64,000 nt of DNA from an uncultured Bacteroidales bacterium (GTDB lineage: Bacteria > Bacteroidota > Bacteroidia > Bacteroidales > FEN-979). Positions 6,751 through 58,134 of the stretch are shown here, in pieces. The translations under genes were made by a program, and so were the position numbers. The stretch is taken from assembly GCA_903929315.1 (NCBI GenBank), contig CAIYUC010000066.1, forward strand, positions 74,986 through 138,985, written 5' to 3'. The notes under the pieces were generated by a model. It did not search any database. It was given only the letters and a program-made list of their open reading frames with translations, and was not told where the DNA came from. How positions within the stretch are numbered: the first letter of the stretch is position 1; each line of letters begins with the position of its first letter.

Positions 6751-6914
6751 CACCCCTGTTGTGGGGCTGTCTGAAATATCTTTGTGATCTTTGTGTAAAA
6801 CATTGTGACCTTTGTGGTTAATTCATAAAAAACTTTACCACAATGAACACTAAGAATGCACAAAGCACACAAAGAAGGAAAAAATATCATACTTTATACT
6901 TTTTAGTCAACCCC
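6751..6914. repeat. About 165-bp palindromic 'word' element (copy E1), bounded by GGGGCTGTCT...AGTCAACCCC, with arms made of CTTTGTG/CATTGTG words
   Basis: Left arm ctttgtgatctttgtgtaaaacattgtgacctttgtggtta pairs with right arm taccacaatgaacactaagaatgcacaaagcacacaaag. It is colinear with the copy at 18822..18981 and starts 12 nt after a stop codon. Confidence 0.75.
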
Positions 6915-11786: not shown

Positions 11787-11961
11787 CCTCACCCCTAAGG
11801 GGTTGTCTAATAAGTTGGAAAGTTAATGTTTCTCGCTGAGTTTCGCTGAGTTAAACGCAGAGTCACGCAAAGTTAAAACTCTTGTTTTCAACATTCTGCG
11901 AAAATCTGCGATTAATCTGCGGAAATCTGCGAGAAAAAAAAGAAACTTATTGGACACCCCC
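11787..11961. repeat. About 175-bp palindromic 'word' element (copy E2) with the same termini as E1/E3 but arms made of CGCTGAG/CGCAGA words
   Basis: The left terminus cctcacccctaaggggttgtctaataagtt matches the reverse complement of the right terminus, gggggtgtccaataagttt. Arm tttctcgctgagtttcgctgagttaaacgcagag pairs with ctgcgattaatctgcggaaatctgcgagaaa. Confidence 0.7.
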
Positions 11962-11977
11962 AATCTTTTGTTCGTCT

Positions 11978-12170
11978 CAGCTCGCGCGCGTTTGTAACGC
12001 GTGCGTAATCCTAATCTCTATTTGGCGCGCGTCTCTGACGCGTGACACATTTTTCAGCTCGCGCGCGTTTGTAACGCGTGCGTAATCCTAATTTCTATTT
12101 GGCGCACGTCTCTGACGCGTGACACATTTTTCAGCTCGCGCGCGTTTGTAACGCGTGCGTAATCCTAATC
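11978..12170. repeat. REP tandem array: 77-bp unit x2.5, each unit carrying one A-type and one B-type REP hairpin
   Basis: The unit start cagctcgcgcgcg recurs at 11978, 12055 and 12132. A-type is gcgcgcgtt-tgt-aacgcgtgc and B-type is gcgcgcgtc-tct-gacgcgtg. Confidence 0.9.
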
Positions 12171-15100
12171 TTTCAAACAACGAACCGAGAAAGCATCCGT
12201 CTTAAAAGCCGGATATACCGACACACTTGGATTCGGATCGTTCATTCCGTGTGCCCAGGCTTTCAACGTTCCATGGGCTGTGGAGGACCAAAAGAATGTC
12301 GCGAACCCCTGATAATCCCAATTTTTATTAAGATACCTGGCACCGGAAAGAATAGCATTAAACCCTGAAAATCCTGAATATTTTAACGGACTGCCTGCAA
12401 AGCCATTACTGATATAATTTGCAAACAAGGTATTCCAATCAGCTTCAGTAGGAACGTGCCATCCCGGCGGGCACATTCCCTGGGTTGAAACGGTTTCGTC
12501 ATATTGCATGACTTCATCCCACTGGTAATACGTTTGTTGTCCGCAGTTAGCAACCGCATCATTATAACAATACTTCTCCCAAATGCAGTTATCCCTCTGG
12601 GAGGTATTTCCTGGAATAAGAGTTCCATAATCAAGATTTGCAGCCATCCAGCATTGGGAACCGATCTGGACAGTAGGATAAACCTTGTTATCTCTTACAT
12701 CTGTGATATTGTTTCCACAAGCAAAAACCGGTGCTGCAACAATTGAAATTGCATGTGTGGCACTGGCACTGCAAAGTGCAGCATTGGTGTAAGTATAACT
12801 CAGTATTTTTAAACCTATCCCAGCCGTTGAAGGTGTGAAAATGCCAGTTAAAGAATTTACTCCCGGCCCTGAATAAGTTCCTCCCAATGGTATCCCGCCT
12901 TTAAGTTTTAAGGGCTGTGCACTGTTTGTGGTAATTGTATCGAAGCAAGCTGTAAATGTAACCACTGAAACTAATGTGCCACTCATGATAATGGTATTTG
13001 AGGTTGCAGGATTCCCCGTGACACATGCAAGGTTAGACGTCAGGATGCAAGATACCAGATCGCCGGATGCCGGATTATAGGTATATGTGGGAGAATTTGT
13101 TCCTTTATTGATTCCGTTGACTTTCCATTGATATGCCGGGTTTGCGCCGCCATTCACGGGGGTTGCTGTGAACGTAACTGAATTTCCGGGGCAGAATGGA
13201 TTGGTTGAGGCGGAAATGGTTATCCCTGCCGGGAGGTTTGCATTAACGACCATCGTTATTGAATTCGATGTGGCAGGATTTCCAACCGGACAGGCAATAT
13301 TTGATGTCATCACACAGGATACAACATCTCCGTTGTTTGGTGAATAAGAATAAACTGGATTATTCGGCCCAACATTGATCCCGTTTACTTTCCATTGATA
13401 TGATGGTAATGTGCCTCCATTGGTTGGGGTAGCTGTAAATGTCACAGAGCTTCCCTGACAGAATGGATTAGCGGATGCTGAAATAACAACACTGACTGGA
13501 AGATTAGGATTGACGGTCATGGTAATCGTATTACTTGTCGCTGGATTTCCAGTAGGACATAGGATATTGGAGGTAAGAACACAATTAACGATATCCCCGT
13601 TTACCGGTGGGTAGCTATATATTGGATTATTTGTACCGACAATTAATCCATTTACCTTCCATTGATATACAGGTAAAGTTCCTCCATTAATCGGTAATGC
13701 AGTATAAATAACAATCGTTCCCGAACAGACCGGGTTTGCAGACGATGAAATGGTAACAGTTACAGGATTCAGTGGGTTGACGATCATTGTTACAACATTG
13801 GAAGTAGCCGGGTTCCCACTGGCACATAAGGCGTTTGACGTGAGTATGCAATTAATAACATCTCCATTGACCGGTGTGTAGCTATAAATAGGATTGTTTG
13901 TGCCAACAATTATTCCATTAACTTTCCACTGATAAACCGGGGTTGTGCCGCCATTGACGGGAGTTGCCTGGAACGTCACGGACGTTCCACTACAAACGGG
14001 ATTTGCTGATGGTGAAATTGTAACACTGACTACCACATTGGTATTTTCAACCATCGTAATTGCATTTGATGTTGCAGGATTTCCTATTGGACAAGGAATG
14101 CTTGAATTCAAAACACATGAAACGACATCTCCGTTATTGGGAACAAATGAGTACACCGGACTACTCAGGCCGACATTTCCCCCATTTACTTTCCACTGAT
14201 ATAATGGTGTTGTACCTTCATTCATTGGAATAGCTGTGAAAGTAACAGTTGAATCTTGGCAGAAAGGATTAGATGAGGCACTAATGGAGAGACTGACCGC
14301 AAGGATTGGATTGACAATCATAGTTATGACATTGGATGTATCCGGGTTATTCATGATGCAGCCGGTGATCGAAGAAGTCAATATACACCTTACTAAATCG
14401 TTGTTTAATGGTGTATAAGAAAAAGAGGGAGAACTGGCTCCTATGTTGATCCCATTAACCTGCCACTGATAGAAAGGATTCCCTCCTCCGTTTGATGCTG
14501 TTGAATTAAACGTAACCTGTGTTCCTTCACAAACATTATTTGATGTGGCAGTGATGGTTATATTGACGGCCGGGCTTGGAGTTACTGTGACATTATAATC
14601 AGTGGGTGAGTCTGCAGAACATCCGTTGGCATCCGTAAAATTGACATAAACATGCTGCGTTCCTGCAGCATTCCAGGTAACCGTTACCGTATTATCCGTG
14701 GTTGAGCCCCCTGATGTTATAACTCCTCCTGCTGAAACACTCCACTGGTAATTCGATTTCCCTGAAGCTGTGGAATAGACCTTTCCCGGGCCGGCACAGG
14801 TATTATTGGGGCCGGAAATTACAGGAACAGGGGCTTGGTTTACCGTAACATATAAATATGCTGTAGCACCGGAATCACACTTATTTAATGCTTGTACTCC
14901 GATTGTTCCTGAAATGGCAGAATTGCTGATATCCACTATAATACTTGGAGTTCCTACACCGCTCGTAAGAGTGAAGCCCGCTGGTAATGTCCAGATATAA
15001 TTCACAGCATGGGTAAGTGATGGAATTGAATAACTAATCCCGTTTGAAGGCTTACATACATTGACCGGTCCGGTAATGGGGCCGGCAGTATCGATTGGCC

Positions 15101-18821: not shown

Positions 18822-18981
18822 GGGGCTGTCTAAAAAGTCTTTGTGATCTTTGTGCAAGACATTGTGCCCATTGTGGTTAATAAAACACTGAACCACAATG
18901 AACACTAAGAAGGCACAAAGTACACTATGAAGGGAAAATTATTATTCTCATTACTTTTAAGTCAACCCCCAGGGGGTGAGG
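18822..18981. repeat. About 160-bp palindromic 'word' element (copy E3), colinear with E1
   Basis: ggggctgtctaaaaagtctttgtgatctttgtgcaagacattgtgcccattgtggtt ... aaccacaatgaacactaagaaggcacaaag ... gtcaacccccagggggtgagg. It fills the whole gap between two convergent stop codons. Confidence 0.75.
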
Positions 18982-21648
18982 CTAAATCGAATCTTTCCCC
19001 GGAATCGGCAAATTCTCCTGGACACATAACGAGGTAAGTTTTTCCATTGACCATGGCGCTGCATAATTATAGAAATTACCGTAAGGTTTCTGGAGAATCG
19101 TAACCAGTTGCCAGATATCAGGATCATGTTCGGGCAGGATCTGTTTTTCGATCTTTTTCCAGCTCTTTATATACATTTTCAGGGTCATAAAAGTGGAAGG
19201 ATCCATATAGTACAATGGAATCTTTTCCAGTTCCTCAGTAAGAATTTTATTTTTGGTCCTTGTGAGATGGCGTTCTCCGAATTCAGTGAGGATCTGCATA
19301 TATTTTTCAAAGAGAATATATTCATTTAGCAGAAAGACGATCTCGACCGGTTCAAATTCTTTCCAGAAAGAGACCGGATGTGGCTGGCCCAGGAATCTTC
19401 CCAACATGAATGAACCTGCATTGAACCCCTTTTTACCTGTTTTAAGACAAATTCTGATCATGTTCTTGAAGAACCTGACTTTCCGGTCGGTGGTCAGGAA
19501 ATTATAGATCTTATGCTGGTCCATATGGGATCCGAGTCCGCTTTTCAGGATCTCATTGAAATAATAATCTGTGTGCAAGTCAAACCAGGCATTCACATAA
19601 TCCATTGCCTTTTTAGGCTGGTTATCATAATCGTTCCGGATTAATTTGATAAGATCGGGCAGGGTTATTGTCTCTTCAGTCGGGATATCGTTGACAATTA
19701 CCTGGTATTCCTTATAAGCACGGGCCATATTGATAAAAACCCGTTCTTCTTTGGGTTCCATTTCAAGCTTATGACCTTCCAGGTATTTCAGGAACCGCGC
19801 AGGTTGAAACTGGGCTTTCCCAAGATAAATCGATTGCCGTCTGCTGGAAACGGTGATCCAGTCACCTTCCTGTATGATCATATTATATTCATTTACCAGG
19901 GTATTTCCCTTGAGCTGCATGTGCTGGTTTTTAAGATCAATGAAAGCCGGGATCCCATACCCGAGACATGCTGTCACAACATGAATCGCCAATGGATTCA
20001 TGCTCATAATCACATCCAGCTCTGCCATAAAGATCGTTTCCGAAGGAATGAAGTTCTCCTTGCAAAGACAAACTTTCTCACCTCTTTTCTTCGCTTCCAG
20101 CGCTTTAGCCATGGAAAAATAGATCTTTGTCGAAACAGCGGACCTGGGAAGGACAGATATTCCGGAACCAAAATATGGAAGCACTCTCAAAGATTCATCA
20201 TCAATTCGTTCAGAAAAGATCTGTCGCAAATGATAAGGTCGTATCAGTTGTATTACCCGGTATTTTGAAATGATCTTTTTCTGGTAAAGATCGATAGCCG
20301 AAAGCAGCGTGGCCCTTCCTGTCAATTCCGAAGGATTGAGCTGGAGTATTGCAAAAAAAGAGGTGCCTTGCCATGATTCAACAGCAAATTCTATCGTAGC
20401 AGGGGATTTCAGCATATCTTCAAAGATCGGAAGAACGGGAGTGAAATGATAAACAGCGGGGAATTCTTCTTTTATCTCTGTCCGGTCAAAATATTCCTTT
20501 TGTTCGGCATGTACGGTTCCTGTCATGATATCTTCTCCGAAAATTTCCCTGACACTTTCGATTTGCATACCCAGACCGGTGCGGGGATGCCTGCTGTATA
20601 AAACGCCCGGATAAGAATTTTTATCCCTGACGGTCCAAACCATCTTTTGCAGGATAAGTGAAGGATACATCGGTTGTCCACGCTGGAAAGTATAGATCAG
20701 ATCCTGGTTCTGAATAAAAAAATCATGCGCTTTTTTCATGAACTTGCTGGCCTGGTATTGCGTATCCCAAAGGATCCGTTGATCAACCTCATCAATTTTC
20801 CTGTATAAATAATAGATTTTTGCTTCAATTTCCGGTTCGCCCTTGAAATCAATTCTTCTCCCGCGTCCTAATTTCTTCTCGGAAAAGAGGATATTGTTGA
20901 TCGTTTTCAGATTATTGAGATAAATCTTATCAGCAACGTCTCTTCCATAATCTCTTAACAGCGATTTATAAACATTTTTTGTGACGCCGACATTCAGGTA
21001 AGTAGGCATCAACCCAGGGATATATTGTGGTGTAGCGCACCGCATGGCGAAAATGAGAGGATTTATTTCCGACCCCAGTTTGGACCCGGTCATCTTTTCA
21101 AGATTTGATATGGCGGCTGTGATATTTTCCTCGCGTTCTTCTTCAGGGAGGTGATAGGAATGAGAAGTCATTACGCAGAAATCAGGAACGGGATAGCCTT
21201 TCTGGTAAAGATCAAGCAGCATTTTCCCTTTCTGGCTTAACAGGACATCATCATATTTAACCTGTGTGGTACAAGGAATAATATTATTATTCTCGGTAAA
21301 TTCGATACCGGAAATTAATTTTGCCATTTCCTTCCGGTATGCATCCTTCAACTTAGAAATTCGTGCGGTTGCTTTTTGGTCACCCCGCGATGCCAGGATA
21401 AGGAGTTTAAGGTACTGGATCGATTTTTTTGTTGAATCCCGCGTCAGCATCCTGACATCAGCGTATGTTATGGGAATTGGTATGAAAGGGCCGTTATCAC
21501 TTGTACAATATTCAAGTTCAGGGGAAAGATTATGGGCTAATGAGCCAATGGCGGATTCGTTTAATGTTCCGGAAATAAACCTTCGGATGCTCTCGAAATT
21601 CGCATAATCTGCCCTGAGCCGGAAATCAAAAATTTCAGGATGACTCAT
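18982..21648 (-). CDS. PPDK-like protein: unknown N-terminal region + divergent PPDK nucleotide-binding (ATP-grasp) domain + swivel phospho-His-like domain + unassigned approximately 270-aa C-terminal domain. There is no PEP/pyruvate TIM barrel.
   Basis: GKMLLDLYQKGYPVPDFCVMTS, NPLIFAMRCATPQYIPGLMPTYLNVGV, FGEDIMTGTVH and AILQLNPSELTGRATLLSAIDLYQKKII align with PPDK motifs (GGKGANLAEM..GLPVPPGF, NPLLVSVRSGA..SMPGMMDT.LNLG, GEDVVAG, LQTR.GKRT). GEKVCLCKENFIPSETIFMAELDVIMSMNPLAIHVVTACLGYGIPAF aligns with G..VIL.R.ETSPED...M..A.GILT..GG.TSHAAVVARG.GKP, and the His is kept at residue 556. Confidence 0.75.
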   Translation of the reverse strand: MSHPEIFDFRLRADYANFESIRRFISGTLNESAIGSLAHNLSPELEYCTSDNGPFIPIPITYADVRMLTRDSTKKSIQYLKLLILASRGDQKATARISKLKDAYRKEMAKLISGIEFTENNNIIPCTTQVKYDDVLLSQKGKMLLDLYQKGYPVPDFCVMTSHSYHLPEEEREENITAAISNLEKMTGSKLGSEINPLIFAMRCATPQYIPGLMPTYLNVGVTKNVYKSLLRDYGRDVADKIYLNNLKTINNILFSEKKLGRGRRIDFKGEPEIEAKIYYLYRKIDEVDQRILWDTQYQASKFMKKAHDFFIQNQDLIYTFQRGQPMYPSLILQKMVWTVRDKNSYPGVLYSRHPRTGLGMQIESVREIFGEDIMTGTVHAEQKEYFDRTEIKEEFPAVYHFTPVLPIFEDMLKSPATIEFAVESWQGTSFFAILQLNPSELTGRATLLSAIDLYQKKIISKYRVIQLIRPYHLRQIFSERIDDESLRVLPYFGSGISVLPRSAVSTKIYFSMAKALEAKKRGEKVCLCKENFIPSETIFMAELDVIMSMNPLAIHVVTACLGYGIPAFIDLKNQHMQLKGNTLVNEYNMIIQEGDWITVSSRRQSIYLGKAQFQPARFLKYLEGHKLEMEPKEERVFINMARAYKEYQVIVNDIPTEETITLPDLIKLIRNDYDNQPKKAMDYVNAWFDLHTDYYFNEILKSGLGSHMDQHKIYNFLTTDRKVRFFKNMIRICLKTGKKGFNAGSFMLGRFLGQPHPVSFWKEFEPVEIVFLLNEYILFEKYMQILTEFGERHLTRTKNKILTEELEKIPLYYMDPSTFMTLKMYIKSWKKIEKQILPEHDPDIWQLVTILQKPYGNFYNYAAPWSMEKLTSLCVQENLPIPGKDSI

Positions 21649-21897
21649 GAAACCTCAATTTGAATGATAAAACAAAGTTAAGGTAATTCATGAAAGTTCA
21701 AATTGGTCATTTCTTTTTTGAGGTGCCAGGTTGTAAAGACTTAATATGGCGCGCGTGTATGGCGCGCGTGTATGGCGCGCGTCTCCGACGCGTGCCTGAT
21801 CACAATTGGCGCGCGTCTCTGACGCGTGCCCATGACGCATGCCACACCGCAATATGGCGCGCGTCTCTGACGCGTGCCTAACCCATGAGCAATAGAC

Positions 21898-22464
21898 TTA
21901 ATATGAATTCAGCTCAGGCGTTTCAAGTATCACAGGCAAAATATTGCTTAACCCAGCATAGTTCCTTGCAGAACTTAAAAAATAATCTTCAGGATTTTCA
22001 ACAATCATTTCTTTTACCGGATTCTGGTGAATATATTTAAGCTTTTGATAGAAAATTTTTGGACAGGAAATTAGTTCAGGATGATTTCCGTCCTGCCAAA
22101 ATTTATATTTTTCTACTCTCCTTAAGGATTTACCTTTATCTGCAAATCTTAAAAGTATCCAATCTTTGCGACTTTCAGGATTATCCAGGATCTCCTGAAG
22201 AATAACCCGGGCAGTAAATTTTTTAAAATCGCGTAATATTTCCGGTAAAGTAATAGTATTCCCTGCCCTTCCAATCATATGAAGATGGTTACTCATAAGG
22301 CACCATGCATATATTTCTAATCCTTTATGCATTTGGCAATACTTTAATGATTCGACGATTTTTATTTTGTAAACTTTCCTGGTGAAAATATCTATCCAAT
22401 CAACAATTGTTAATGTCACAAAATAGGCTTTATCATTTTCCCTGATTTTGTATTTTTCAGACAT
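21898..22464 (-). CDS. REP-associated tyrosine transposase (RAYT; IS200/IS605-family Y1 transposase-like)
   Basis: MSEKYKIRENDKAYFVTLTIVDWIDIFTR...AWCLMSNHLHMI carries the HUH motif (HLH), and YIHQNPVK carries the catalytic Tyr. The track ORF start at 22572 lies inside a REP copy, so I chose the ATG at 22464. Confidence 0.85.
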   Translation of the reverse strand: MSEKYKIRENDKAYFVTLTIVDWIDIFTRKVYKIKIVESLKYCQMHKGLEIYAWCLMSNHLHMIGRAGNTITLPEILRDFKKFTARVILQEILDNPESRKDWILLRFADKGKSLRRVEKYKFWQDGNHPELISCPKIFYQKLKYIHQNPVKEMIVENPEDYFLSSARNYAGLSNILPVILETPELNSY

Positions 22465-22594
22465 GGTTTGAAATCTTGATTTTACATTAATCAGGAATTT
22501 TTGAAAAGGTGATACTGTTTTCGGGAAAATATTTTTGTTTAAAGCCAGGCACGCGTCGGAGACGCGCGCCATACACTCATGCTATGCAGAGATT

Positions 22595-22645
22595 TTCTTT
22601 GTGACCATTGTGCAATCATTGTGACCATTGTGGTTAAATAAAAAG
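22595..22645. repeat. Half copy (one arm only) of the CTTTGTG/CATTGTG word element
   Basis: The read is ttctttgtgaccattgtgcaatcattgtgaccattgtggttaaataaaaag, with no matching right arm. Confidence 0.6.
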
Positions 22646-22682
22646 TAATTTTATCCTTCTGAAATTCCCAAACTTAAAGCCA

Positions 22683-22849
22683 GGCACGCGTCGGAGACGC
22701 GCGCCAAAGTGGGTTTATTTGGTTAAACCGTGCACGCGTCGGAGACGCGCGCCAAAGTGGGTTTATTTGGTTAAACCGTGCACGCGTCGGAGACGCGCGC
22801 CAAAGTGGGTTTATTTGGTAAACCGTGCACGCGTCGGAGACGCGCGCCA
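22683..22849. repeat. REP tandem array: 48-bp unit (23-bp REP + 25-bp invariant spacer) x3.5
   Basis: gcacgcgtcggagacgcgcgcc recurs at 22684, 22732, 22780 and 22827. The spacers aaagtgggtttatttggttaaaccgt are identical except for a single T deletion in the last. Confidence 0.9.
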
Positions 22850-22948
22850 TAAGCGTGTATATGATCATTGCAGTCAATGTAAAAATAATTAATTTTACCA
22901 ATTAGCATGCTGGCGCGCGTCTCTGACGCGTGCCTTATCACACAATCA

Positions 22949-24235
22949 ATGAGAAAGGTCATATTTTTCTTCGCTTTGTTTTTTACTTTAATGGACTTTC
23001 CATCCCTCTGTCAGGAATTTTATATGATCAAAGGCACAATATCCGATAATTCAACGAACATAGTTCTGCCCTTTGCACAGATTTCTGTCAGTAATTCAAC
23101 AATCGGCATTGCCTCCAATACCGACGGCTATTTTGAGATCAATATACCAAATGAACATTTGAAAGATTCATTGGTTGTTTATTACCTGGGGTATGAATCC
23201 TTTAAAGGAAAAATCTCTGAAATGTTGAATGATCAGAATTCCATACGACTAAATCCGGTAGTCTTATCATTGTCTGAGATTGAGATCATTGGCTTGACCG
23301 CGCAGGAAGTTATAAGAAGAGCAGTAGCAAATATTCCGGACAATTATGGTTCAGGGCCTATGATCCTGACCGCATTTATACGGGTTCAGAAAATGATCAA
23401 TAATAAACTGGTCGAATTTGCCGAAGCTGTGATCAATGATGAAAAAGACGGTTATTATCTGTACAAGCAAAAGGCGCTGCCTGAAAAATACAGGAAATCC
23501 AATCTGCCTGAACTCGTAAAAGCGCGGGTTATCTCCGATACTATTCTGGTTAACTCATTGGATGAGGTGGGTAAAAATGCCTATTGTCTGAGCTGCTATT
23601 TTACCCGGGATATTGTTGAATTTTACCCCGGAACCGTATTTGATGAAAAAGAATTTAAGAAATATGATTTCCACATGGAAGAAATAATCGGCCAGCAAGG
23701 GAAAAAGATCTATCATATCCGGTTTGACCAAAAAGATAAGATCAGGGAATCACTTTGGCAGGGAGAACTATTCATTGATGCCGGGGAGTTTGCGGTTGAG
23801 AAAGTCATCCTTAAACCAAGCCTGAAGAATTTTGATCATTATAACAGAAAAACAAAGTACATGCGAACCTATACCATACGAAATATGCCCGGGTGGATCC
23901 AGGAAATCCCCCTGGGACAAACTGAGGTTACCTATTCAACTCGTAATGGAAAATGGTTTTTGAATACGATCCGCAATGAATACTGGATGACCTATAACCA
24001 TCCCGGTACAGGACAAATGCTGAAATACGGATATAAAGATGAGGTCGTGGTGACGGATGTGAGTTGTGATCCGGAAAAGATAAAAAGTTTTAACGGGGAC
24101 AAATCCGTCGGCAGAAACCGGCGCTGGGATCAGATCATCGGCCAACCGGATGAAACCTTCTGGAGCCATTATAATTACCTGCCCATCGAGGAAACGCTGA
24201 AAAATGCGATCCGGAAAATTTCGGATAGTCAATAG
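22949..24235 (+). CDS. Exported hypothetical protein with an N-terminal CarboxypepD_reg-like domain
   Basis: Signal peptide MRKVIFFFALFFTLMDFPSLCQ, then IKGTISDNSTNIVLPFAQISVSNSTIGIASNTDGYFEINIP. The ORF start at 22907 lies in a REP copy, so I chose the ATG at 22949. Confidence 0.7.
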   Translation: MRKVIFFFALFFTLMDFPSLCQEFYMIKGTISDNSTNIVLPFAQISVSNSTIGIASNTDGYFEINIPNEHLKDSLVVYYLGYESFKGKISEMLNDQNSIRLNPVVLSLSEIEIIGLTAQEVIRRAVANIPDNYGSGPMILTAFIRVQKMINNKLVEFAEAVINDEKDGYYLYKQKALPEKYRKSNLPELVKARVISDTILVNSLDEVGKNAYCLSCYFTRDIVEFYPGTVFDEKEFKKYDFHMEEIIGQQGKKIYHIRFDQKDKIRESLWQGELFIDAGEFAVEKVILKPSLKNFDHYNRKTKYMRTYTIRNMPGWIQEIPLGQTEVTYSTRNGKWFLNTIRNEYWMTYNHPGTGQMLKYGYKDEVVVTDVSCDPEKIKSFNGDKSVGRNRRWDQIIGQPDETFWSHYNYLPIEETLKNAIRKISDSQ

Positions 24236-24262: not shown

Positions 24263-24490
24263 GAGAAATTGTTTAATGAGTTCGAGGTAATTACGCACGC
24301 GTTCGGAAACGCGCGCGAGATAAGTCACGCGTCAGAGACGCGCGCCAATTGTGAGAAATTGTTTAATGAGTTCGAGGTAATTACGCACGCGTTCGGAAAC
24401 GCGCGCGAGATAAGTCACGCGTCAGAGACGCGCGCCAATTGTGAGAAATTGTTTAATGAGTTCGAGGTAACTACGCACGCGTTCGGCAAT
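24263..24490. repeat. REP tandem array: 90-bp unit x2.5, each unit with an A-type and a B-type REP (reverse orientation) plus non-REP sequence
   Basis: gagaaattgtttaatgagttcgaggtaa recurs at 24263, 24353 and 24443. Units contain cgcacgcgttcggaaacgcgcgcg and gtcacgcgtcagagacgcgcgcc. Confidence 0.9.
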
Positions 24491-24609
24491 TTATCTGCCA
24501 AAGGCAGACGCGTGCAAGCTGTCGGTTATCGTAATTCGTAATCATTTTTTTCTCCGCATCACGCGTTTCGCGTTACGCGTCACGTCTTCGTTCGCCCGTC
24601 CGGACTAAT

Positions 24610-34325: not shown

Positions 34326-34348
34326 GGCGCGCGTCTCTGACGCGTGCC
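34326..34348 (+). repeat. Single B-type REP hairpin between the MbnP-like and peroxidase genes
   Basis: Exact ggcgcgcgtctctgacgcgtgcc. Confidence 0.9.
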
Positions 34349-37627: not shown

Positions 37628-37760
37628 AGTGTGCCTTCGTGCAATCCTTGGAGACCTTACTGGATAACCTTTAAAGATTTTAACCACAAAGGGGCACAAA
37701 GGATTGCACAAAGCCTTCCTAACGGCAGGGATCACAAAGTTTGCACAAAGTATCACAAGG
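37628..37760. repeat. CACAAAG-word hairpin plus trailing word repeats
   Basis: tgtgccttcgtgcaatccttgg faces ccacaaaggggcacaaaggattgcacaaag, followed by atcacaaagtttgcacaaagtatcacaagg. Confidence 0.6.
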
Positions 37761-37811: not shown

Positions 37812-37834
37812 AGCACGCGTCAGAGACGCGCGCT
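37812..37834 (-). repeat. Single B-type REP hairpin (variant) 20 nt downstream of the permease gene stop
   Basis: The read is agcacgcgtcagagacgcgcgct. Confidence 0.8.
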
Positions 37835-40067: not shown

Positions 40068-40124
40068 AAAATACTATACAGAGAATTAATTCATAAACCA
40101 GAACGCAGAATTCAGGTACTCTCT

Positions 40125-40178
40125 TTGTTAATCTGTTACTTTGTTACTTTGTTACTTTATTACTCTGTTACTTTATGC
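40125..40178. repeat. Degenerate tandem octamers (GTTACTTT) in a divergent intergenic region
   Basis: The read is tgttaatctgttactttgttactttgttactttattactctgttactttatgctcc. Confidence 0.75.
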
Positions 40179-44138: not shown

Positions 44139-46253
44139 ATGAAAAAATATTTCATTTTTATTTCTATCCTTGCACTTCTTATTGGAAATGGTTGCAAGCA
44201 AAAAATCACCGTGAAATACCCGGCAACAAAAAAGGTCGACACTGTCAATAATTATTTTGGAACGAAAATCGCAGATCCTTACCGCTGGTTGGAAAATGAC
44301 ACTTCCAAAGCCACTGCGGAATGGGTCAAAGCGGAAAACGCCGTCACCTTTGATTATCTTTCAAAGATCCCTTTCAGGGAAAAGATCCGCGAAAGGCTTA
44401 CGAAAATCTGGAACTACCCGAAATACGGCGTCCCTTTTAAAGAAGGGCCTTATTATTTCTTCTTTAAAAACAACGGTTTGCAGAATCAGTCGGTGCTTTA
44501 TTACCGAAAAGGGCTGGAAGACACTGCAAATGTCCTGTTGGATCCCAATAAACTCGCTACTGACGGCACCCTTGCCCTTACCTCGGTGAAAGTTTCCCAT
44601 GACGGGAAATACCTTGCTTTCAGCATTGCGAAAAGCGGTTCCGACTGGAATGAGATCTTCGTGATGGAGATTGAATCGGGGAAAATCCTGCCGGACAATT
44701 TAAAATGGGTCAAATTCTCGAGGATTTCCTGGAAAGGGGACGGGTTTTATTACAGCCGGTACCCGGAACCTGCACCGGATGAAGAGCTCGTGACTAAAAA
44801 CGAATTCCAGAAAGTCTATTTCCACAAAGTTGGTGACGACCAGAAGAATGATCTGTTGGTCTATGAAAACAAGAAATTCCCTTTACGCAACTTTAGCGCC
44901 TCGGTGACGGAAGACGAAAGATTCCTGCTGGTGTATGAATCCGAATCGACCAGTGGCAATGCTTTATTTTATAAAGACCTGAAGAAAAGCACCATGCCTT
45001 TCAAGCTTCTTGCGGAGGGATTTGAATTTGAATATAGCGTGGTCGATAATATTGAAGACAAGCTGCTTGTCGAAACCAACTACAAAGCTCCCAAAAAGAT
45101 GCTCGTATTGATGGATCCGGAAAACCCCGGTCCCGATCACTGGAAAACAATGATCCCGGAACGGGAAGATGTACTTGAATCGGTCGAAGTTGCACGCGAC
45201 AGGATTATTTCACTCTACATGCAGAATGCCATAAACAAGGCTTATGTTTACGATCTGAAGGGACAATTTCTCCAGGAATTAAATCTCCCCGGCCTGGGTA
45301 CGCTCAGCGGCTTCAGTGGTAAGAAGGGCGAAAATATTGCCTTTTACGGTTTTACAACCTTCCGTTTCCCGACTACTGTATTCAAATACGAAGTGTCAAC
45401 CAATCAATCAACTGTCTATACGCGGCCGGAGATCGATTTTGATCCCGATCAATACGAAGCAAAGCAGGTCACGTACAGCAGTAAAGACAAAACCAGCATA
45501 ACCATGTTCCTGGTCTATAAAAAAGGGTTGAAGCTCGATGGTCAAAATCCCACTTTATTATATGGTTATGGGGGGTTCAATATCAGCATGACGCCGAATT
45601 TCAGCATCAGCCGTACCTTGTTTCTAGCTAATGGCGGTGTTTATGCTGTCCCGAACCTGCGCGGGGGAGGAGAATATGGTGAAAGTTGGCATAAAGCCGG
45701 TACCAAGGAAAGAAAGCAAAATGTCTTTGATGATTTCATTGCTGCGGCTGAGTACCTGATCAGTGAAAAATACACATCTCCCGAACACCTCGCCATCCTT
45801 GGCGGTTCCAATGGTGGTTTACTGGTAGGCGCCTGCATGACCCAGCGGCCGGATCTTTTCAAAGTCTGCATTCCCCAGGTGGGCGTGATGGATATGCTCC
45901 GTTACCATAAGTTCACCATCGGCTGGGCATGGAAATCCGACTATGGATCAAGTGAGACGAAGGAAGGATTTGATTGGCTGATCAAATATTCTCCTTTACA
46001 TAACCTCAAAAAAGGAGTAAGCTATCCTGCCACGATGGCATTCACAGCCGATCATGATGACCGCGTGGTTCCCGCACATACATTTAAATTTATGGCCACC
46101 CTGCAGGAAGATAATGCCGGGCCGAATCCAATGATCGTCAGGATCGAGACCAAAGCAGGACATGGCGCCGGTACCCCTACCTCAAAACTGATCGAGGAAA
46201 CTACCGATCTCTGGTCATTTGTGTTCTATAACCTGGGGATGAAGGTGAAATAG
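44139..46253 (+). CDS. Prolyl oligopeptidase (S9A) lipoprotein
   Basis: DPYRWLE at the N-terminus; catalytic GGSNGGLL, DDRV and AGHG. Confidence 0.95.
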   Translation: MKKYFIFISILALLIGNGCKQKITVKYPATKKVDTVNNYFGTKIADPYRWLENDTSKATAEWVKAENAVTFDYLSKIPFREKIRERLTKIWNYPKYGVPFKEGPYYFFFKNNGLQNQSVLYYRKGLEDTANVLLDPNKLATDGTLALTSVKVSHDGKYLAFSIAKSGSDWNEIFVMEIESGKILPDNLKWVKFSRISWKGDGFYYSRYPEPAPDEELVTKNEFQKVYFHKVGDDQKNDLLVYENKKFPLRNFSASVTEDERFLLVYESESTSGNALFYKDLKKSTMPFKLLAEGFEFEYSVVDNIEDKLLVETNYKAPKKMLVLMDPENPGPDHWKTMIPEREDVLESVEVARDRIISLYMQNAINKAYVYDLKGQFLQELNLPGLGTLSGFSGKKGENIAFYGFTTFRFPTTVFKYEVSTNQSTVYTRPEIDFDPDQYEAKQVTYSSKDKTSITMFLVYKKGLKLDGQNPTLLYGYGGFNISMTPNFSISRTLFLANGGVYAVPNLRGGGEYGESWHKAGTKERKQNVFDDFIAAAEYLISEKYTSPEHLAILGGSNGGLLVGACMTQRPDLFKVCIPQVGVMDMLRYHKFTIGWAWKSDYGSSETKEGFDWLIKYSPLHNLKKGVSYPATMAFTADHDDRVVPAHTFKFMATLQEDNAGPNPMIVRIETKAGHGAGTPTSKLIEETTDLWSFVFYNLGMKVK

Positions 46254-46295
46254 ATGCCGGATGCCGGATGCCAGATGTCAGATGTCAGATACTTG
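46254..46295 (+). repeat. Heptad tandem array ATnCCnG (ATGCCGG x2, ATGCCAG, ATGTCAG x2, degenerate), starting on the base after the TAG stop
   Basis: The direct read is tag|atgccggatgccggatgccagatgtcagatgtcagatacttg. Confidence 0.9.
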
Positions 46296-47781: not shown

Positions 47782-50619
47782 TTGAAAAAACCAGAAATCA
47801 TTTATTCATGGCTTAAAAATCTTCGGACCTGCTTTATTTACCTGGGTCTCATTTCAGGCAACTTCACGATTTTATATTCACAAAATCCTTTTGTTTTTGC
47901 TGGTGAAAACTGCTTCACTGAGGGTAAAAGATTATACCATAGAGGGGTATATGATAGTGCTGCAATAAAGCTCAAATGTTTTTTAGATCTTTCCCCTGAA
48001 CGAAAACTGCTTGTTGATCCATTGGCGAGTGGTATCAGGATTTCAAAACAAGAGGTGGAACAAATCCTGTCTGCCTGTTTAAAATTGTCGGTTTGTTTTA
48101 TAATCCTTAAAGATTTTGATAGCGGATTTATCTACCTGGATCAAGGGCTTGTAATTTTTAAACAGGCTGGCTTTCAGAATGAGAAGTTATTAACCGACTT
48201 CTATTTTCAGAAGGGCAACTGCTATTTTTTAAGGAAGGATTACAGCAATGCTATTCATTTTTACCAGCAAGCACTCTCTCACATGCCTATGGGGGATCCG
48301 TTAAAGGTATCGGTTTATATGAATTTGGGTGATATCTATTTTGTAAAGGAGGACGCTGATAATGCCATTGATCATTATAGAAAGGCATTGATACTTCTCA
48401 AAGCTTCAGCGAAAGGCAGCTTGGAAAAATCTGCTGATATTCTGGCTAATCTTGGTGCAGCATATTTTGAGAAAAACGATAATGAAAAAGCGATATTTTA
48501 TTTTTTAAAAGCCAAAAAAATTTATGAACTCAACCACACGAATGATACACTCAGCATTGGCAGACTCTTTGTGAACATAGGCAGCGTATATTTAAAACGC
48601 AATGTGATAAATAAATCTTTGAACTATTATAGGTCAGCAATCAGATATATAAGAACAAAGAATAAGTTTTATTCCCCGGAACTATTATTACTCTATAAAG
48701 ATTTTGCATCCGCATATTCGAAATCTGGCAGGGAAGATTCTTGTTTTTTTTATCTTTCTGCAGCGATGGATCTTTTGACACATCAGAAACAAGATGAAAA
48801 TGATGAAGCAGCCGATCTGTATCGGTTAATGGGCAATTGTTCCAAATCACAAAACCATTGGCAGGATGCTTTGAATTATTATAACAAGTCATTATCAACA
48901 TTGATCCCGGAATATAGGGATGGAGAAGAGAATTTCCGGAGGATATTGACTAACCCTGTCCGGTTGCTGGAATTCTGCAGGATATTAACTGATAGGGCAC
49001 AGGCAATCTACCAATACGGATCGGTTCATCCTGAAGAAGTTGATTTTATCAAACGATCTTTTTCGGATTATTTAACCTCCCTTAAACTGTTGAATGTGAT
49101 TTCAAAAGGTTTTGGACGCGAAGGCTCTAAACTGATCTTTAATGAGACTTCAAAAGAATTTTATTCAAGGGTTTTGAATATTGGGTTTCAGGACATGGAT
49201 GCCTTGGATGAACAGGAGAAGGAAAAGTTGTTCGGGCTTTCTGAAAAAAGTCGTACGAATGTTCTTTTGGAAACAATGAATGAAAAAACGGCAAAAAGAG
49301 TTTCCGGTATTCCTGAAATTTTGCTGAAAAAAGATAATGCAATACAGTATGAGCTCACTCGTTTAGGCAGTAAATATTTTTCCGACCCTCCACTGGTCGC
49401 CAAAGATGAGCAAAAAACATTATTGAATGAAGTAATGCGGATTTCAGACCTCTATCAGGAACATGATTCTCTGATTAAGGAGTTTGAATTGAACAACCCC
49501 AAATACTTTGATATGAAATACGGGGATTCCCATGTTTCATTAGCTGAAATCCGGCAGAAACTTGATCCGGATGAATCCCTGATCGAATATTTTACAGGCG
49601 ATTCCACTTTATTTATTTTTCTTGTTACAAGAGATTGTGTTATTGTGAAAAAAGTCAGGATTAATGATGACTTTCAAGCCAGTGTAAAAAAATACAATAA
49701 ACTCCTGGCAAGCGCTGATATTCAGGATTATTTCAGGATCAGTAAAATGCTATACCAGTTCTTACTTGCTCCTATCGGGAGCTACCTGAAGAATGACAAG
49801 AAATTGATCATTATTCCGGATGAAATTCTTGCATTGGTTCCTTTTGAAACGTTGGTCAGCGACACTTTCACAACCAGCGGGGTCACTAATAACCATTATC
49901 TTGTAAATGATTTCGAGATCTGTTATCACTATTCGGCGACATTATGGAGGAAAAGTTTTGATGCTGCCGGGGATTACCAACCGGGTGACAATAAGCATTT
50001 TAATTTCATAGGTTATTCACCCGGATTTCAGTTAAAGAATAATAACCTTCCCTATGCGGATGATGAGATCATAAAAGTAACCCGTATCCTGAAGGATCAT
50101 GGAGTGGAAGCGGTTTCAGTACTTCATGACCAGGCTACTGAAGAACATTTTAAAAGATATACCTCTTCCTATTCCTGGATCCATCTTGCTACACATAGTA
50201 AGGTTGACTTTAACTATCCTGAAAGATCCGGTTTGCTTTTTACCGAAGATCCCGGATCTAAAAAGGATCAAACCTCCGGGAACGATGTTTTATATCTGGA
50301 TGAGATATATAATTTAGGTCTGCATGCTGACCTGGTGGTATTAAGTGCGTGTGCCACGGGTACCGGGAAAATCATCAAATCGGAAGGCGCAATGGCTTTG
50401 ACCCGTGGTTTTCTTTATGCCGGAGCGTCAAACATACTGTATTCCCTTTGGAATATCACCGACAAGCATACACGGGACTTCATGATCGGCTTTTATTCTG
50501 AACTGGTTTCAGGGAAGAGCTATTCAGCGGCTCTCCGGGCCGAGAAGCTGAAGATGATCTCCCGGCCGGAAACTTCTCTTCCCACCATCTGGGCGCCGTA
50601 TGTGTTGATGGGGAGATGA
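47782..50619 (+). CDS. Exported TPR-repeat / CHAT-domain (caspase-like) protein
   Basis: Multiple TPR units (NAIHFYQQAL, AIDHYRKAL, KAIFYFLKA). The C-terminal CHAT domain has a catalytic-type His (WIHLATHSKVD) and Cys (LVVLSACATGTG). The start is a TTG per the track. Confidence 0.85.
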   Translation: MKKPEIIYSWLKNLRTCFIYLGLISGNFTILYSQNPFVFAGENCFTEGKRLYHRGVYDSAAIKLKCFLDLSPERKLLVDPLASGIRISKQEVEQILSACLKLSVCFIILKDFDSGFIYLDQGLVIFKQAGFQNEKLLTDFYFQKGNCYFLRKDYSNAIHFYQQALSHMPMGDPLKVSVYMNLGDIYFVKEDADNAIDHYRKALILLKASAKGSLEKSADILANLGAAYFEKNDNEKAIFYFLKAKKIYELNHTNDTLSIGRLFVNIGSVYLKRNVINKSLNYYRSAIRYIRTKNKFYSPELLLLYKDFASAYSKSGREDSCFFYLSAAMDLLTHQKQDENDEAADLYRLMGNCSKSQNHWQDALNYYNKSLSTLIPEYRDGEENFRRILTNPVRLLEFCRILTDRAQAIYQYGSVHPEEVDFIKRSFSDYLTSLKLLNVISKGFGREGSKLIFNETSKEFYSRVLNIGFQDMDALDEQEKEKLFGLSEKSRTNVLLETMNEKTAKRVSGIPEILLKKDNAIQYELTRLGSKYFSDPPLVAKDEQKTLLNEVMRISDLYQEHDSLIKEFELNNPKYFDMKYGDSHVSLAEIRQKLDPDESLIEYFTGDSTLFIFLVTRDCVIVKKVRINDDFQASVKKYNKLLASADIQDYFRISKMLYQFLLAPIGSYLKNDKKLIIIPDEILALVPFETLVSDTFTTSGVTNNHYLVNDFEICYHYSATLWRKSFDAAGDYQPGDNKHFNFIGYSPGFQLKNNNLPYADDEIIKVTRILKDHGVEAVSVLHDQATEEHFKRYTSSYSWIHLATHSKVDFNYPERSGLLFTEDPGSKKDQTSGNDVLYLDEIYNLGLHADLVVLSACATGTGKIIKSEGAMALTRGFLYAGASNILYSLWNITDKHTRDFMIGFYSELVSGKSYSAALRAEKLKMISRPETSLPTIWAPYVLMGR

Positions 50620-50667
50620 TTCCGGATACCGGATGCCAGATACCAGATACCAGATGTCAGATACATC
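50619..50667 (+). repeat. Heptad tandem array ATnCCnG (6 units plus a degenerate one) sharing its first base with the TGA stop
   Basis: The read is tg|attccggataccggatgccagataccagataccagatgtcagatacatc. Confidence 0.9.
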
Positions 50668-50679
50668 ATACGTCACGCG

Positions 50680-53962: not shown

Positions 53963-55162
53963 ATGCTTCGCTACAGCCTTGTATTTATCTTCCTGTTTTT
54001 TGCTTCTTGTATTCCGGTTAAAACCTACTCACAGGAAAAAACATCGCTTAATACAGTGGTCATTGATGCCGGTCATGGTGGGAAAGACCCTGGTACCATG
54101 GGAAAACAGGCGCAGGAGAAATATATAAACCTTGGCATTGCCTTGAAGCTGGGTGGGCTTATTCGCAGCAACTGTCCTGATGTTAAAGTAATTTTTACAA
54201 GGGAAAAGGATGAATTCATTGAACTTCATGAAAGAGCAGATATAGCGAACAGGAATAATGCCGATCTGTTCATATCGATCCATTGCAATTCAAATCCTTC
54301 GCATATATTCCGGGGCGCTGAGACTTACGTTATGGGATTGCACAGGTCCCAGGCCAACCTTGAGATTGCCAAGAAGGAAAATGCATCCATCCTGATGGAA
54401 CCAAACTATTCGGTAAACTATAACGGCTTCGATCCGAATTCCGATGAATCCTATATCACTTTTACGATGTTCCAGAATGCCTTCCTTGATCAGAGCACAA
54501 ATTTCGCAGCAACCGTCCAGGATCAGTTGAAAGGCAGGGTAGGTCTTGATGATCGGGGGGTAAGGCAGGCCGGTTTTCTCGTCTTATACAAAACGACTAT
54601 GCCAAGCGTACTGGTAGAAGCCGGCTTTTTAAGCAACCCGGAAGAGGAGACTTTTTTGATCTCTGATAATGGACAGGAATTCATAGCGTCTGCTATCTTC
54701 AGAGCCTTTATCAGTTTTAAAAAGAAAATCGAAAGCGGGGGAAAAGAAGTCATTGCATATAATCCCGGGATCGATACTCAAAAGGGAAAATCAAAAATAA
54801 TTGTCACAAAACCAGTGAAAACACAAAAAGAAATTGTATCCGGGAAAACAGAACCCAAACCTGATCCCCCGAAGAAAACGAAAATCCAATCACCCGTGAT
54901 CAGTTACCGCGTTCAATTCATGATCTATCCCAAAGACATTAGTTTACATTCAGTGAAATTTTCCGGTTTACCGGATATCAGAATGTATCGTCACCAGGGA
55001 ATGTTCAAGTATACCACCGGTGAAGGGAAGTCTGTTGAAGAAGTGACGAAATTCCTGGATATGGCAAAGGATAAAGGATTTAAAGACGCTTTTATTGTGG
55101 CTTTTAAGGGCGAAGAAAGGATTACGATTGCGGAGGCTAAACGACTTCAGTCCTTTGAATAG
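53963..55162 (+). CDS. N-acetylmuramoyl-L-alanine amidase (Amidase_3) with a C-terminal SPOR domain
   Basis: VVIDAGHGGKDPG, SIHCNS and VLVEAGFLSN. The SPOR-like domain is YRVQFMIY...FKDAFIVAF. Confidence 0.9.
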   Translation: MLRYSLVFIFLFFASCIPVKTYSQEKTSLNTVVIDAGHGGKDPGTMGKQAQEKYINLGIALKLGGLIRSNCPDVKVIFTREKDEFIELHERADIANRNNADLFISIHCNSNPSHIFRGAETYVMGLHRSQANLEIAKKENASILMEPNYSVNYNGFDPNSDESYITFTMFQNAFLDQSTNFAATVQDQLKGRVGLDDRGVRQAGFLVLYKTTMPSVLVEAGFLSNPEEETFLISDNGQEFIASAIFRAFISFKKKIESGGKEVIAYNPGIDTQKGKSKIIVTKPVKTQKEIVSGKTEPKPDPPKKTKIQSPVISYRVQFMIYPKDISLHSVKFSGLPDIRMYRHQGMFKYTTGEGKSVEEVTKFLDMAKDKGFKDAFIVAFKGEERITIAEAKRLQSFE

Positions 55163-55264
55163 TTATTCATTGTTATTCAGTGGTTATTCGGTAGTTATTC
55201 AGTGGTTATTCGGTAGTTATTCAGTGGTTATTCGGTAGTTATTCATAGTTATTCATAGTTATTC
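55162..55264 (+). repeat. Tandem array of 11 GTTATTC-containing 10/11-mers, sharing its first base with the TAG stop
   Basis: GTTATTC occurs at 55162, 55172, 55183, 55194, 55205, 55216, 55227, 55238, 55248 and 55258, with the last copy ending at 55264. There is a 22-bp super-period (gttattcagtg gttattcggta). Confidence 0.9.
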
Positions 55265-56351: not shown

Positions 56352-56385
56352 TCGTAATTTCTATATTTTCCTTATATAACGGACT

Positions 56386-56450
56386 GTTATTCGTGGTTAT
56401 TCGTGGTTATTCGTGGTTATTCATTGTTAATTATTCATTGTTAGTTGTTC
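56386..56450 (+). repeat. Tandem array of GTTATTC-containing 10-mers (4 exact plus 2 degenerate)
   Basis: The read is gttattcgtg x3, gttattcatt, gttaattattcatt, gttagttgttc. It has the same orientation as the 55162 array. Confidence 0.9.
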
Positions 56451-56461
56451 ACTGATTTATC

Positions 56462-57988: not shown

Positions 57989-58084
57989 ACGATTCTTCTG
58001 ATAAGCAACAGACAAACTTACATAAAAATCAGCTTTATCCGAATACCGGATAAAAAACTCTTAAAGGGTTGCAAGGGAAGACAG

Positions 58085-58133
58085 ATTCCAGATGCCAGAT
58101 CCCGGATACCAGATGCCGGATGCCGGATGCCGG
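58085..58133 (+). repeat. Heptad tandem array ATnCCnG (7 units) ending 1 nt from the stop codon of the minus-strand 58135 gene
   Basis: The read is attccagatgccagatcccggataccagatgccggatgccggatgccgg|a|tta. Confidence 0.9.
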
Positions 58134-58134
58134 A

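Follow-up and report, generated by a model that had tools for sequence, protein, structure and literature searches.

A 64,000-nucleotide stretch of a contig from an uncultured Bacteroidales bacterium (CAIYUC010000066.1, positions 74,986 to 138,985; hereafter the window) encodes a REP-associated tyrosine transposase (RAYT, or TnpAREP) among many copies of a short repetitive extragenic palindrome (REP). The locus is very probably a REPtron of Bacteroidetes type: a RAYT gene with arrays of its cognate 23-nt REP on either side and further copies in intergenic DNA. An original prediction, made from the bare sequence, had read the locus as a RAYT/REP system, and it is supported by family models, by the fold of the protein, by the excess of the repeat and by an arrangement kept around homologous genes. 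The REPtron reading rests on what the protein is (its family, motifs and fold), on how the repeat behaves (its excess, orientation and hairpin covariation), on the conserved arrangement, on selection acting on both the gene and the REP, and on polymorphism of the arrays. Overlooked by the original prediction were a second REP variant, the tandem-unit structure of the arrays and differences in array length between contigs.

The RAYT gene and its product

The RAYT gene occupies 21898..22464 on the minus strand and encodes 188 amino acids, beginning MSEKYK. A mechanical list of open reading frames (ORFs) gives a 224-aa version whose start, an upstream ATG, falls within a REP copy; because all 40 aligned homologues begin MSEKYK or MSDKYK, the 188-aa form is the real product. 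It carries the motifs NHLH (N58-H61, with the HUH pair His59-Leu-His61), WQ (122-123), YIHQNP (143-148, with the catalytic Tyr143) and SS (163-164), and the spacing from HUH to Tyr is 84 residues. The original prediction had called this product a RAYT from its HLH and YIHQNP motifs, and motifs, family models and fold agree that it is one. The hidden Markov model it had pointed to, Pfam PF01797 (Y1_Tnp), scores 32.4 bits (gathering cut-off 23, E 1.1e-7). The NCBIfam model NF047646 REP_Tyr_transpos, the equivalog for "REP-associated tyrosine transposase", scores 90.2 bits (cut-off 80), and the IS200 equivalog NF033573 scores 20.5 bits, under its cut-off of 55. Public data hold about 2,800 relatives, many of them labelled "REP element-mobilizing transposase RayT" (JGI) or "transposase [Bacteroidota bacterium]" (NCBI). 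An alignment of 41 relatives shows His59, His61, Trp122, Tyr143, His145, Asn147, Pro148, Ser164, Arg166 and Tyr168 to be invariant; Gln123 and Ser163 are conserved to at least 90%. Purifying selection acts on the gene: the ratio of nonsynonymous to synonymous substitution (dN/dS) is 0.12 against a 77% homologue (L049).

A search of the PDB with the RAYT as a single sequence (phmmer) returns nothing relevant and no match to 4er8, the E. coli TnpAREP; with a profile of the family, 4er8 ranks first, followed by IS200/IS605 transposases. The AlphaFold (AF2) model of the protein (predicted local distance difference test score, pLDDT, 86; predicted template-modelling score, pTM, 0.84) gives the same picture when compared with the PDB by Foldseek. 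Its best match is 4ER8_A (E 4.5e-7, template-modelling score, TM, 0.58/0.65), and the next are 2xma, 2xm3, 2a6m and 2vjv, transposases of ISDra2, IS608 and IS200. The model places Tyr143 within helix 134-150 and has an extra helix, 99-110, between helix 72-93 and strand 122-130.

REP arrays in the window

Searching the window for the 23-mer GGCGCGCGTCTCYGACGCGTGCC with up to 3 mismatches yields 15 matches, which start at 12024, 12101, 21774, 21808, 21856, 22548, 22683, 22731, 22779, 22826, 22912, 24324, 24414, 34326 and 37812 (type A); 100 dinucleotide-preserving shuffles yield 0. The original prediction had counted about 15 copies by eye, at exactly these positions, and its expectation of an excess over shuffled controls is borne out within the window. 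It had also described the copies as intergenic in an AT-richer background. This too is the case: the 23-mer has 17/23 G+C (74%) and the window a GC content of 41.4%, and all copies lie between the long ORFs of the window. REP 22912 overlaps only the over-extended start of ORF 22907..24235, which gene callers begin 16 codons later.

Type-A copies in the flanks of the RAYT gene make up 11/15, and other loci with copies number only four in the 64 kb. The 3' side of the gene has three full copies on the plus strand and two half copies consisting of the 5' arm. The half copies (21748, 21761) belong to a 13-bp tandem, TATGGCGCGCGTG x2.9 (21745..21782, plus strand), that leads into the first full REP. 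This copy is exact with loop TCC (21774..21796), the second is exact with loop TCT (21808..21830) and directly followed by a degenerate REP 3' arm, CATGACGCATGCC (21831-21843), and the third, also exact, lies 20 nt from the RAYT stop codon (21856..21878). The 5' side has five copies on the minus strand. The nearest is exact (22548..22570), lies 84 nt upstream of the RAYT start and reads forward on the coding strand; the other four (22683, 22731, 22779, 22826) form a 48-bp head-to-tail array (22683..22849) with identical 25-nt spacers. Beyond them lies a re-inverted plus-strand copy with a GCT foot (22912..22934). The REP 3' ends therefore point toward the RAYT gene on both flanks, 22912 excepted, and the original prediction (three full and two half copies on the 3' side, five opposite copies and one re-inverted on the 5' side) was right in every count.

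Most REP copies are units of head-to-tail tandem arrays, with periods of 48, 77 and 90 bp. The one inverted pair in the window is head-to-head (22826/22912); every other multi-copy site is head-to-tail. The non-flanking copies are intergenic and mostly sit just beyond the 3' ends of genes. Two of them are solitary: an exact plus-strand copy with a GCT foot between MbnP-like and MauG-like genes (34326..34348), and a minus-strand variant just beyond the stop of LptF/LptG, with A-T in place of G-C as closing pair (AGCG...GCT; 37812..37834).

As single-stranded DNA the top strand of the REP, GGCGCGCGTC-TCY-GACGCGTGCC, forms an unbroken 10-bp stem with a 3-nt loop that begins with T and a G.T pair at the fourth position (predicted fold -11.9 kcal/mol, z -4.75). 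The bottom strand is predicted to fold at -9.7 kcal/mol and has an A.C mismatch at the fourth position, so the two strands are structurally distinguishable. The 5' flank of the type-A REPs in the window is WT or GCT, followed by GG; GT[AG]G does not occur there.

A second variant, type B, has the form CGCGCGCGTT-TGT/TTCC-AACGCGTGCG and occurs in 5 copies, each preceded by CT: three on the plus strand (11983-12005, 12060-12082, 12137-12159) and two with a 4-nt loop on the minus strand (24294-24317, 24384-24407). Type B alternates head-to-tail with type A (12024, 12101) in a plus-strand 77-bp tandem of 2.5 units (11977..12171), and type A (24324, 24414) alternates with type B in a minus-strand 90-bp tandem of 2.5 units (24263..24486); both tandems have convergent genes on either side. 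The outer frame GCGC-N13/14-GTGC has no further sites in the 64 kb besides the type-A and type-B REPs. The core stem of type B, GCGCGCGTT/AACGCGTGC, is that of the REP beside a 62%-identical RAYT (L053), save for the closing pair (C-G vs A-T). The 64-kb window has no second Y1 gene, so the RAYT of type B may be a paralogue encoded outside the window. A third 90-bp unit is broken and extends to about 24520: a type-B arm, CGCACGCGTTCGG, is joined via GGCAATTTATCTGCC...GGCA (24474-24520), and the join ends in GACGCGTGC, a type-A 3' arm that runs the other way. This segment may be a recombination scar between the two REP types.

Other explanations of the arrays as such were considered. A CRISPR-like array (clustered regularly interspaced short palindromic repeats) is rejected, as the spacers are identical within each array and the repeats are units of plain tandem duplication. 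A general role of the REP as intrinsic terminator is likewise rejected, on the letters of the DNA alone: T runs precede the forward copies and do not come after them. An Rfam scan of the whole window matched no RNA family.

The repeat around homologous genes and in other genomes

An identical RAYT is found on five other metagenome contigs, with the same neighbours wherever the contig is long enough to show them. The population is present in the JGI metagenomes 3300022593, 3300023311 and 3300022650. Four of the five sister contigs (L045 1253-2413, L046, L047, L048) were compared as DNA with window 21747-22934. Their downstream cluster has 4 REPs vs 3 in the window, the extra 48-bp unit sitting at the site of REP 21856, and in L045 the 48-bp array upstream of the gene is shorter, with 3 units vs 4 in the window. 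The contigs share an identical RAYT and differ by one period of REP; therefore array length is polymorphic.

An 83% orthologue has the same neighbours as the window RAYT. Homologues of 62-77% identity stand in unrelated gene contexts and are nonetheless accompanied by nearly the same REP stem, GCGCGCGT(C/T)...(G/A)ACGCGTGC, with 4-8 forward REPs upstream (in the three loci with an upstream flank) and 2-7 reverse REPs downstream, each tandem array having a spacer of its own. In three of these comparisons (L050, L051, L053) the proportion of synonymous differences from the window (pS) is 0.76-0.83, that is, synonymous sites are saturated, while the REP stem is unchanged or compensatorily changed (e.g. 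closing pair G-C to A-T). Because a non-coding stem is held where synonymous sites are saturated, the REP itself is under constraint.

A covariation test needs sites that were not chosen for being hairpins. An earlier, hairpin-based collection was circular in this respect and was discarded; sites were chosen instead by the outer frame GCGC-N13-GTGC alone, within 700 bp of RAYT homologues, which gives 66 sites in 21 loci. The inner five positions are fully paired in 63/66 of them, with at least 12 different inner stems. The covariation score is 0.571, vs 0.154 in shuffles (reached by 0/500) and at most 0.125 in slid controls. The rule of forward copies upstream and reverse copies downstream is kept in 59/66 sites, and the density of the frame is 0.63/kb within 700 bp of RAYT genes vs 0.054/kb beyond, a 12-fold difference. 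T stands at position -1 in 60/66 sites and C at -2 in 41/66. Against a covarying upper stem, four features stay fixed: GCGC/GTGC in the lower stem, its G.T pair, the T of the loop and CT on the 5' side.

At 80 further loci (36-59% identity), many RAYTs are bracketed by inverted hairpin pairs whose stems are clade-specific, and the REP type tracks a neighbour-joining tree of the RAYT proteins. One clade of 38-45% identity (L103-L122 and L134) has no recurrent flanking hairpin that a simple detector picks up; its REP may be different or weaker, or there may be none.

The type-A 23-mer is also found, letter for letter, far from this population. A scan for exact matches, with one genome per species, finds it in 44 genome stretches, mostly of Hymenobacter spp. 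(H. aranciens has at least 27 copies), and as single copies in metagenome-assembled genomes (MAGs) labelled Saprospiraceae, Flavobacteriaceae, Bacteroidales and Bacteroidetes. Local GC over the 44 stretches ranges from 0.39 to 0.73, and GCT precedes the 23-mer in most of the copies. None of these loci shows the array pattern of the window. At many Hymenobacter loci (among L001-L042) the 23-mer forms the outer arms of doublets, inverted and spaced about 107 bp, an arrangement like that of REPINs (REP doublets forming hairpins), with a GCT foot before it and, inside the doublet, GACTGG and a second small hairpin after it. One such doublet (L006 150-285) folds at -72.6 kcal/mol, z -10. When the MAG loci were compared with the window for orthologous REP insertion sites, only one (L019) had homologous genes, and no clear site was seen.

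That locus, from a LacPavin Bacteroidetes MAG, resembles the window in another way: window 11809-11930, an intergenic stretch with repeats of TCTGCGA type, aligns in inverted orientation with intergenic L019 3826-3945 at 75% identity, and the same MAG encodes a protein that is homologous to the neighbouring 1745-aa surface protein (61% identical). Intergenic tandems of 7-11 bp units, unrelated to the REP (CACAAAG, CTTTGTTA, CAGATGC/GATACCA and GTTATTC types), occur throughout the window, at 6839-6876, 18894-18933, 37650-37760, 40123-40174, 46252-46290, 50618-50671, 55159-55264, 56385-56451 and 58082-58135; in locus L044 a REP copy stands immediately next to a (GATGCTG)n run. The neighbours of the window RAYT are a CarbopepD_reg_2 protein and an 888-aa protein without Pfam match. 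The ORF of the latter (18982-21648, minus strand; no Pfam match at E 1e-5) adjoins the RAYT gene on every contig with the identical RAYT that reaches far enough.

Class placement, mechanism and alternatives

By motifs, spacing and REP frame, and so as judged from sequence, the window RAYT fits TnpAY1 subclass 2.6 (Quentin et al. 2018, PMC6006769), which is RAYT Group 5 of Bertels et al. (2017, PMC5581495). According to PMC6006769, subclass 2.6 comprises 63 proteins that average 179 aa and are hosted mostly by Bacteroidetes. The class has the motifs NH[LIV]H, WQ, YIH[QN]NP and a C-terminal SS (its Table 1), a median HUH-to-Tyr spacing of 82 aa and an insertion of about 21 aa, predicted helical, between alphaC and beta4; the genes have "atypical" flanking structures without GT[AG]G, with further copies in the genome. 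The window protein has N58-H-L-H61, W122-Q123, Y143-I-H-Q-N-P148 and S163-S164, and is like the class also in its length of 188 aa, its spacing of 84 and its extra alphaC/beta4 helix, as well as in its Bacteroidetes host, its flanking hairpins without GT[AG]G and the presence of copies elsewhere in the window. The 16-mers flanking Group 5 genes are reported to have about the same frequency as the ones beside insertion sequences (PMC5581495). The locus thus belongs to a published class, and standard annotation would name the gene already. The remark in the original prediction that no Bacteroidota example has been characterised stands for biochemistry; otherwise it does not, subclass 2.6/Group 5 having been catalogued in 2017-2018 (PMC6006769, PMC5581495).

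The hairpins point the same way. The window sequence GCT-GGCGCGCGTC-TCT-GACGCGTGCC (22909-22934) fits the class 2.6 design of CT[AG]G followed by GCGC...GTGC, with G.T pair and 3-nt loop. This design is shared with the hairpins given in the supplementary table of PMC6006769 for Spirosoma linguale (GCTGGCGCGAGC-ATAT-GCTCGTGCC), Aequorivita (GCTAG-CGCGAGCG-TCC-CGCTCGTG), Zobellia (GCTAGCGCTCGTT-TGT-AACGAGTGCCGT), Flexibacter litoralis (CTGGCGCAAGGT-TCT-ACCTTGTGC) and Owenweeksia. The upper stem of the window REP (CGCGTC/GACGCG, searched as GCGCGCGT) is absent from that table, and a search of the supplementary files gave no match. Class 2.6 and class 3 structures are termed "weaker" and "atypical" in the paper, unlike the strong 10-bp hairpin of the window (-11.9 kcal/mol), and head-to-tail arrays with strain-level variation in copy number, as in the window, are not described for class 2.6 in the parts of the paper used here.

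Two better-known systems offer points of comparison. Like the REPtron of E. coli K-12 (YafM, 4ER8; Group 2/subclass 2.2), the window has a single chromosomal Y1 gene bracketed by REPs that are imperfect palindromes and vary in number among strains; local amplification has been proposed as one step in the spread of E. coli REPs, and the window arrays fit it. The proteins differ, with 17% identity over the structural alignment and DHLH and YIHYNP in E. coli vs NHLH and YIHQNP here. The repeats differ as well: E. coli REPs have 30-40 nt, a GTAG foot and an arrangement in inverted pairs (bacterial interspersed mosaic elements, BIMEs), whereas the window REP has 23 nt, a CT or WT foot and mostly head-to-tail order. 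Binding by E. coli TnpAREP requires the 5' tetranucleotide and a stem mismatch (PMC3333891). The Group 3 RAYT/REPIN systems of Pseudomonas fluorescens, Stenotrophomonas maltophilia and Marinomonas (subclass 2.5) resemble the window in the REP itself (about 23 nt, 8-10 bp stem, 3-4 nt loop). The enzymes of Stenotrophomonas and Marinomonas cleave at CT dinucleotides, the Marinomonas enzyme being aided in its choice of site by a GTAG guide (PMC8266576), and CT is also the dinucleotide conserved 5' of the REP across the homologous loci. Unlike the window REPs, those of Group 3 have a GTAG guide and are perfectly palindromic, and the Group 3 proteins have DH[LF]H and YI[VI]ANP. The canonical features of GTAG-REP systems (the foot tetranucleotide, and DH[LF]H with YIHYNP or YI[VI]ANP) are thus absent from the window locus. 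The hallmark of REPINs, mainly inverted and short-spaced pairs, is seen for the 23-mer in Hymenobacter, whose doublets resemble those of Group 3, and is not seen in the window with its one inverted pair.

By analogy with the TnpAREP enzymes of E. coli, Stenotrophomonas and Marinomonas, a mechanism can be proposed that covers REP binding, strand choice, cleavage site and mobility. In single-stranded DNA the top-strand REP would fold into its 10-bp hairpin, which the enzyme would bind. Probable recognition cues are the GCGC/GTGC lower stem with its G.T pair, the loop T and the foot CT (WT in this AT-rich genome), the foot occupying the place that GT[AG]G would have in proteobacterial REPs. Tyr143, with a metal held by His59 and His61, would then attack the DNA to give a 5'-phosphotyrosine link, and the 3'-OH of another cleaved site could resolve this link, so that REP units could change place, fuse or disappear. 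The head-to-tail arrays would come from local amplification of REP plus spacer, by the same chemistry or by slippage on direct repeats.

Several observations weigh against the REPtron reading or this mechanism. The CT foot is present in 2/15 type-A copies of the window; the others have AT or TT, T alone being conserved, and should cleavage take place at CT, the enzyme may act poorly on most of the local copies. Footprints of target sites or of excision are not found in the window. Head-to-tail arrays and their one-period changes are explained equally well by replication slippage or unequal recombination. Away from the RAYT gene there are no REPs in three 20-kb loci (L050, L051, L053), so dispersal may be weak in some hosts, and in 0/44 of the stretches with the exact 23-mer is a RAYT found within 8 kb of it (tblastn). 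Binding or cleavage of REP single-stranded DNA by a RAYT has been shown only for Groups 2 and 3 (PMC3333891, PMC8266576).

Some of these points would equally be accommodated if the REPs were structural or regulatory hairpins kept by the host (e.g. for protection of mRNA 3' ends, or as protein sites) and multiplied by slippage or recombination, with a RAYT link that is historical or reflects some other domesticated function. Most copies do stand in perfect tandem arrays whose length changes by one period, dispersed copies are mostly just beyond the 3' ends of genes, and both the CT foot missing from most local copies and the three loci without REPs away from the gene are what such hairpins would show. 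Nevertheless, we consider this explanation unlikely, since the repeat co-diverges with the RAYT protein, is enriched 12-fold beside its gene and keeps its orientation in 59/66 sites. Purifying selection on the gene and the invariance of the catalytic residues also speak against it, and a pure RNA-level role has no need of a fixed orientation around the RAYT gene.

More improbable still is that the gene and its flanking hairpins make up an autonomous insertion sequence (IS) of IS200/IS605 type, the dispersed hairpins being solo ends or derivatives like miniature inverted-repeat transposable elements (MITEs). The HUH/Y1 fold and the chemistry are common to the TnpA proteins of IS608 and ISDra2, which use a subterminal single-stranded DNA hairpin with a mismatch or loop T; moreover, homologues of 60-68% occur in differing gene contexts, one of them with an IS110 transposase nearby. 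IS200/IS605 elements carry one subterminal hairpin per end, on the same strand; those of the window are multiple and mutually inverted. The gene has one copy in 64 kb and is syntenic in the 83% orthologue, and no tnpB adjoins it. The IS200 model, at 20.5 against a cut-off of 55, also argues against such an element, as does the tyrosine motif, which is YIHQNP and not the Y[IV]ENQ of the IS200 type (PMC6006769). A chance GC-rich palindrome or an assembly artefact has a negligible probability: the source is a metagenome-assembled contig, where tandem mis-assembly could yield copy-number differences, but 0/100 shuffles matched, and the same 23-mer occurs in Hymenobacter isolate genomes and in independent assemblies.

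Going beyond the REPtron reading, we put forward only tentatively, and think somewhat doubtful, the joint claim that Group 5/2.6 RAYTs choose their substrate and cleavage site in a way unlike that of GTAG-guided enzymes. As parts of this claim, the determinants would be the CT abutting the hairpin, the invariant GCGC/GTGC stem with its G.T pair and the loop T. The REP, kept to the nucleotide among RAYTs with saturated synonymous sites, also occurs in differing groups of Bacteroidota (Hymenobacter and Saprospiraceae, Flavobacteriaceae and Bacteroidales MAGs, at a local GC of 39-73%), which would imply an unusually tight long-term co-constraint of enzyme and substrate or repeated horizontal spread of the whole REPtron. 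One REP would also have two modes of proliferation, as head-to-tail arrays in AT-rich hosts and as REPIN doublets in Hymenobacter.

The additions made here to what is published on the class are modest: constraint on the REP despite saturated synonymous sites, the set of invariant and covarying positions, and tandem arrays as a mode that varies between strains. Among transposases that bacteria may have domesticated to sustain populations of short repeats within their genomes, RAYT/REP systems are the strongest candidates. All mechanistic work to date has dealt with the proteobacterial Groups 2 and 3. The Bacteroidetes class is represented here by a locus that is clean and intact, and the fixed and the covarying positions of its REP tell which bases should be changed when the class is first tested biochemically.

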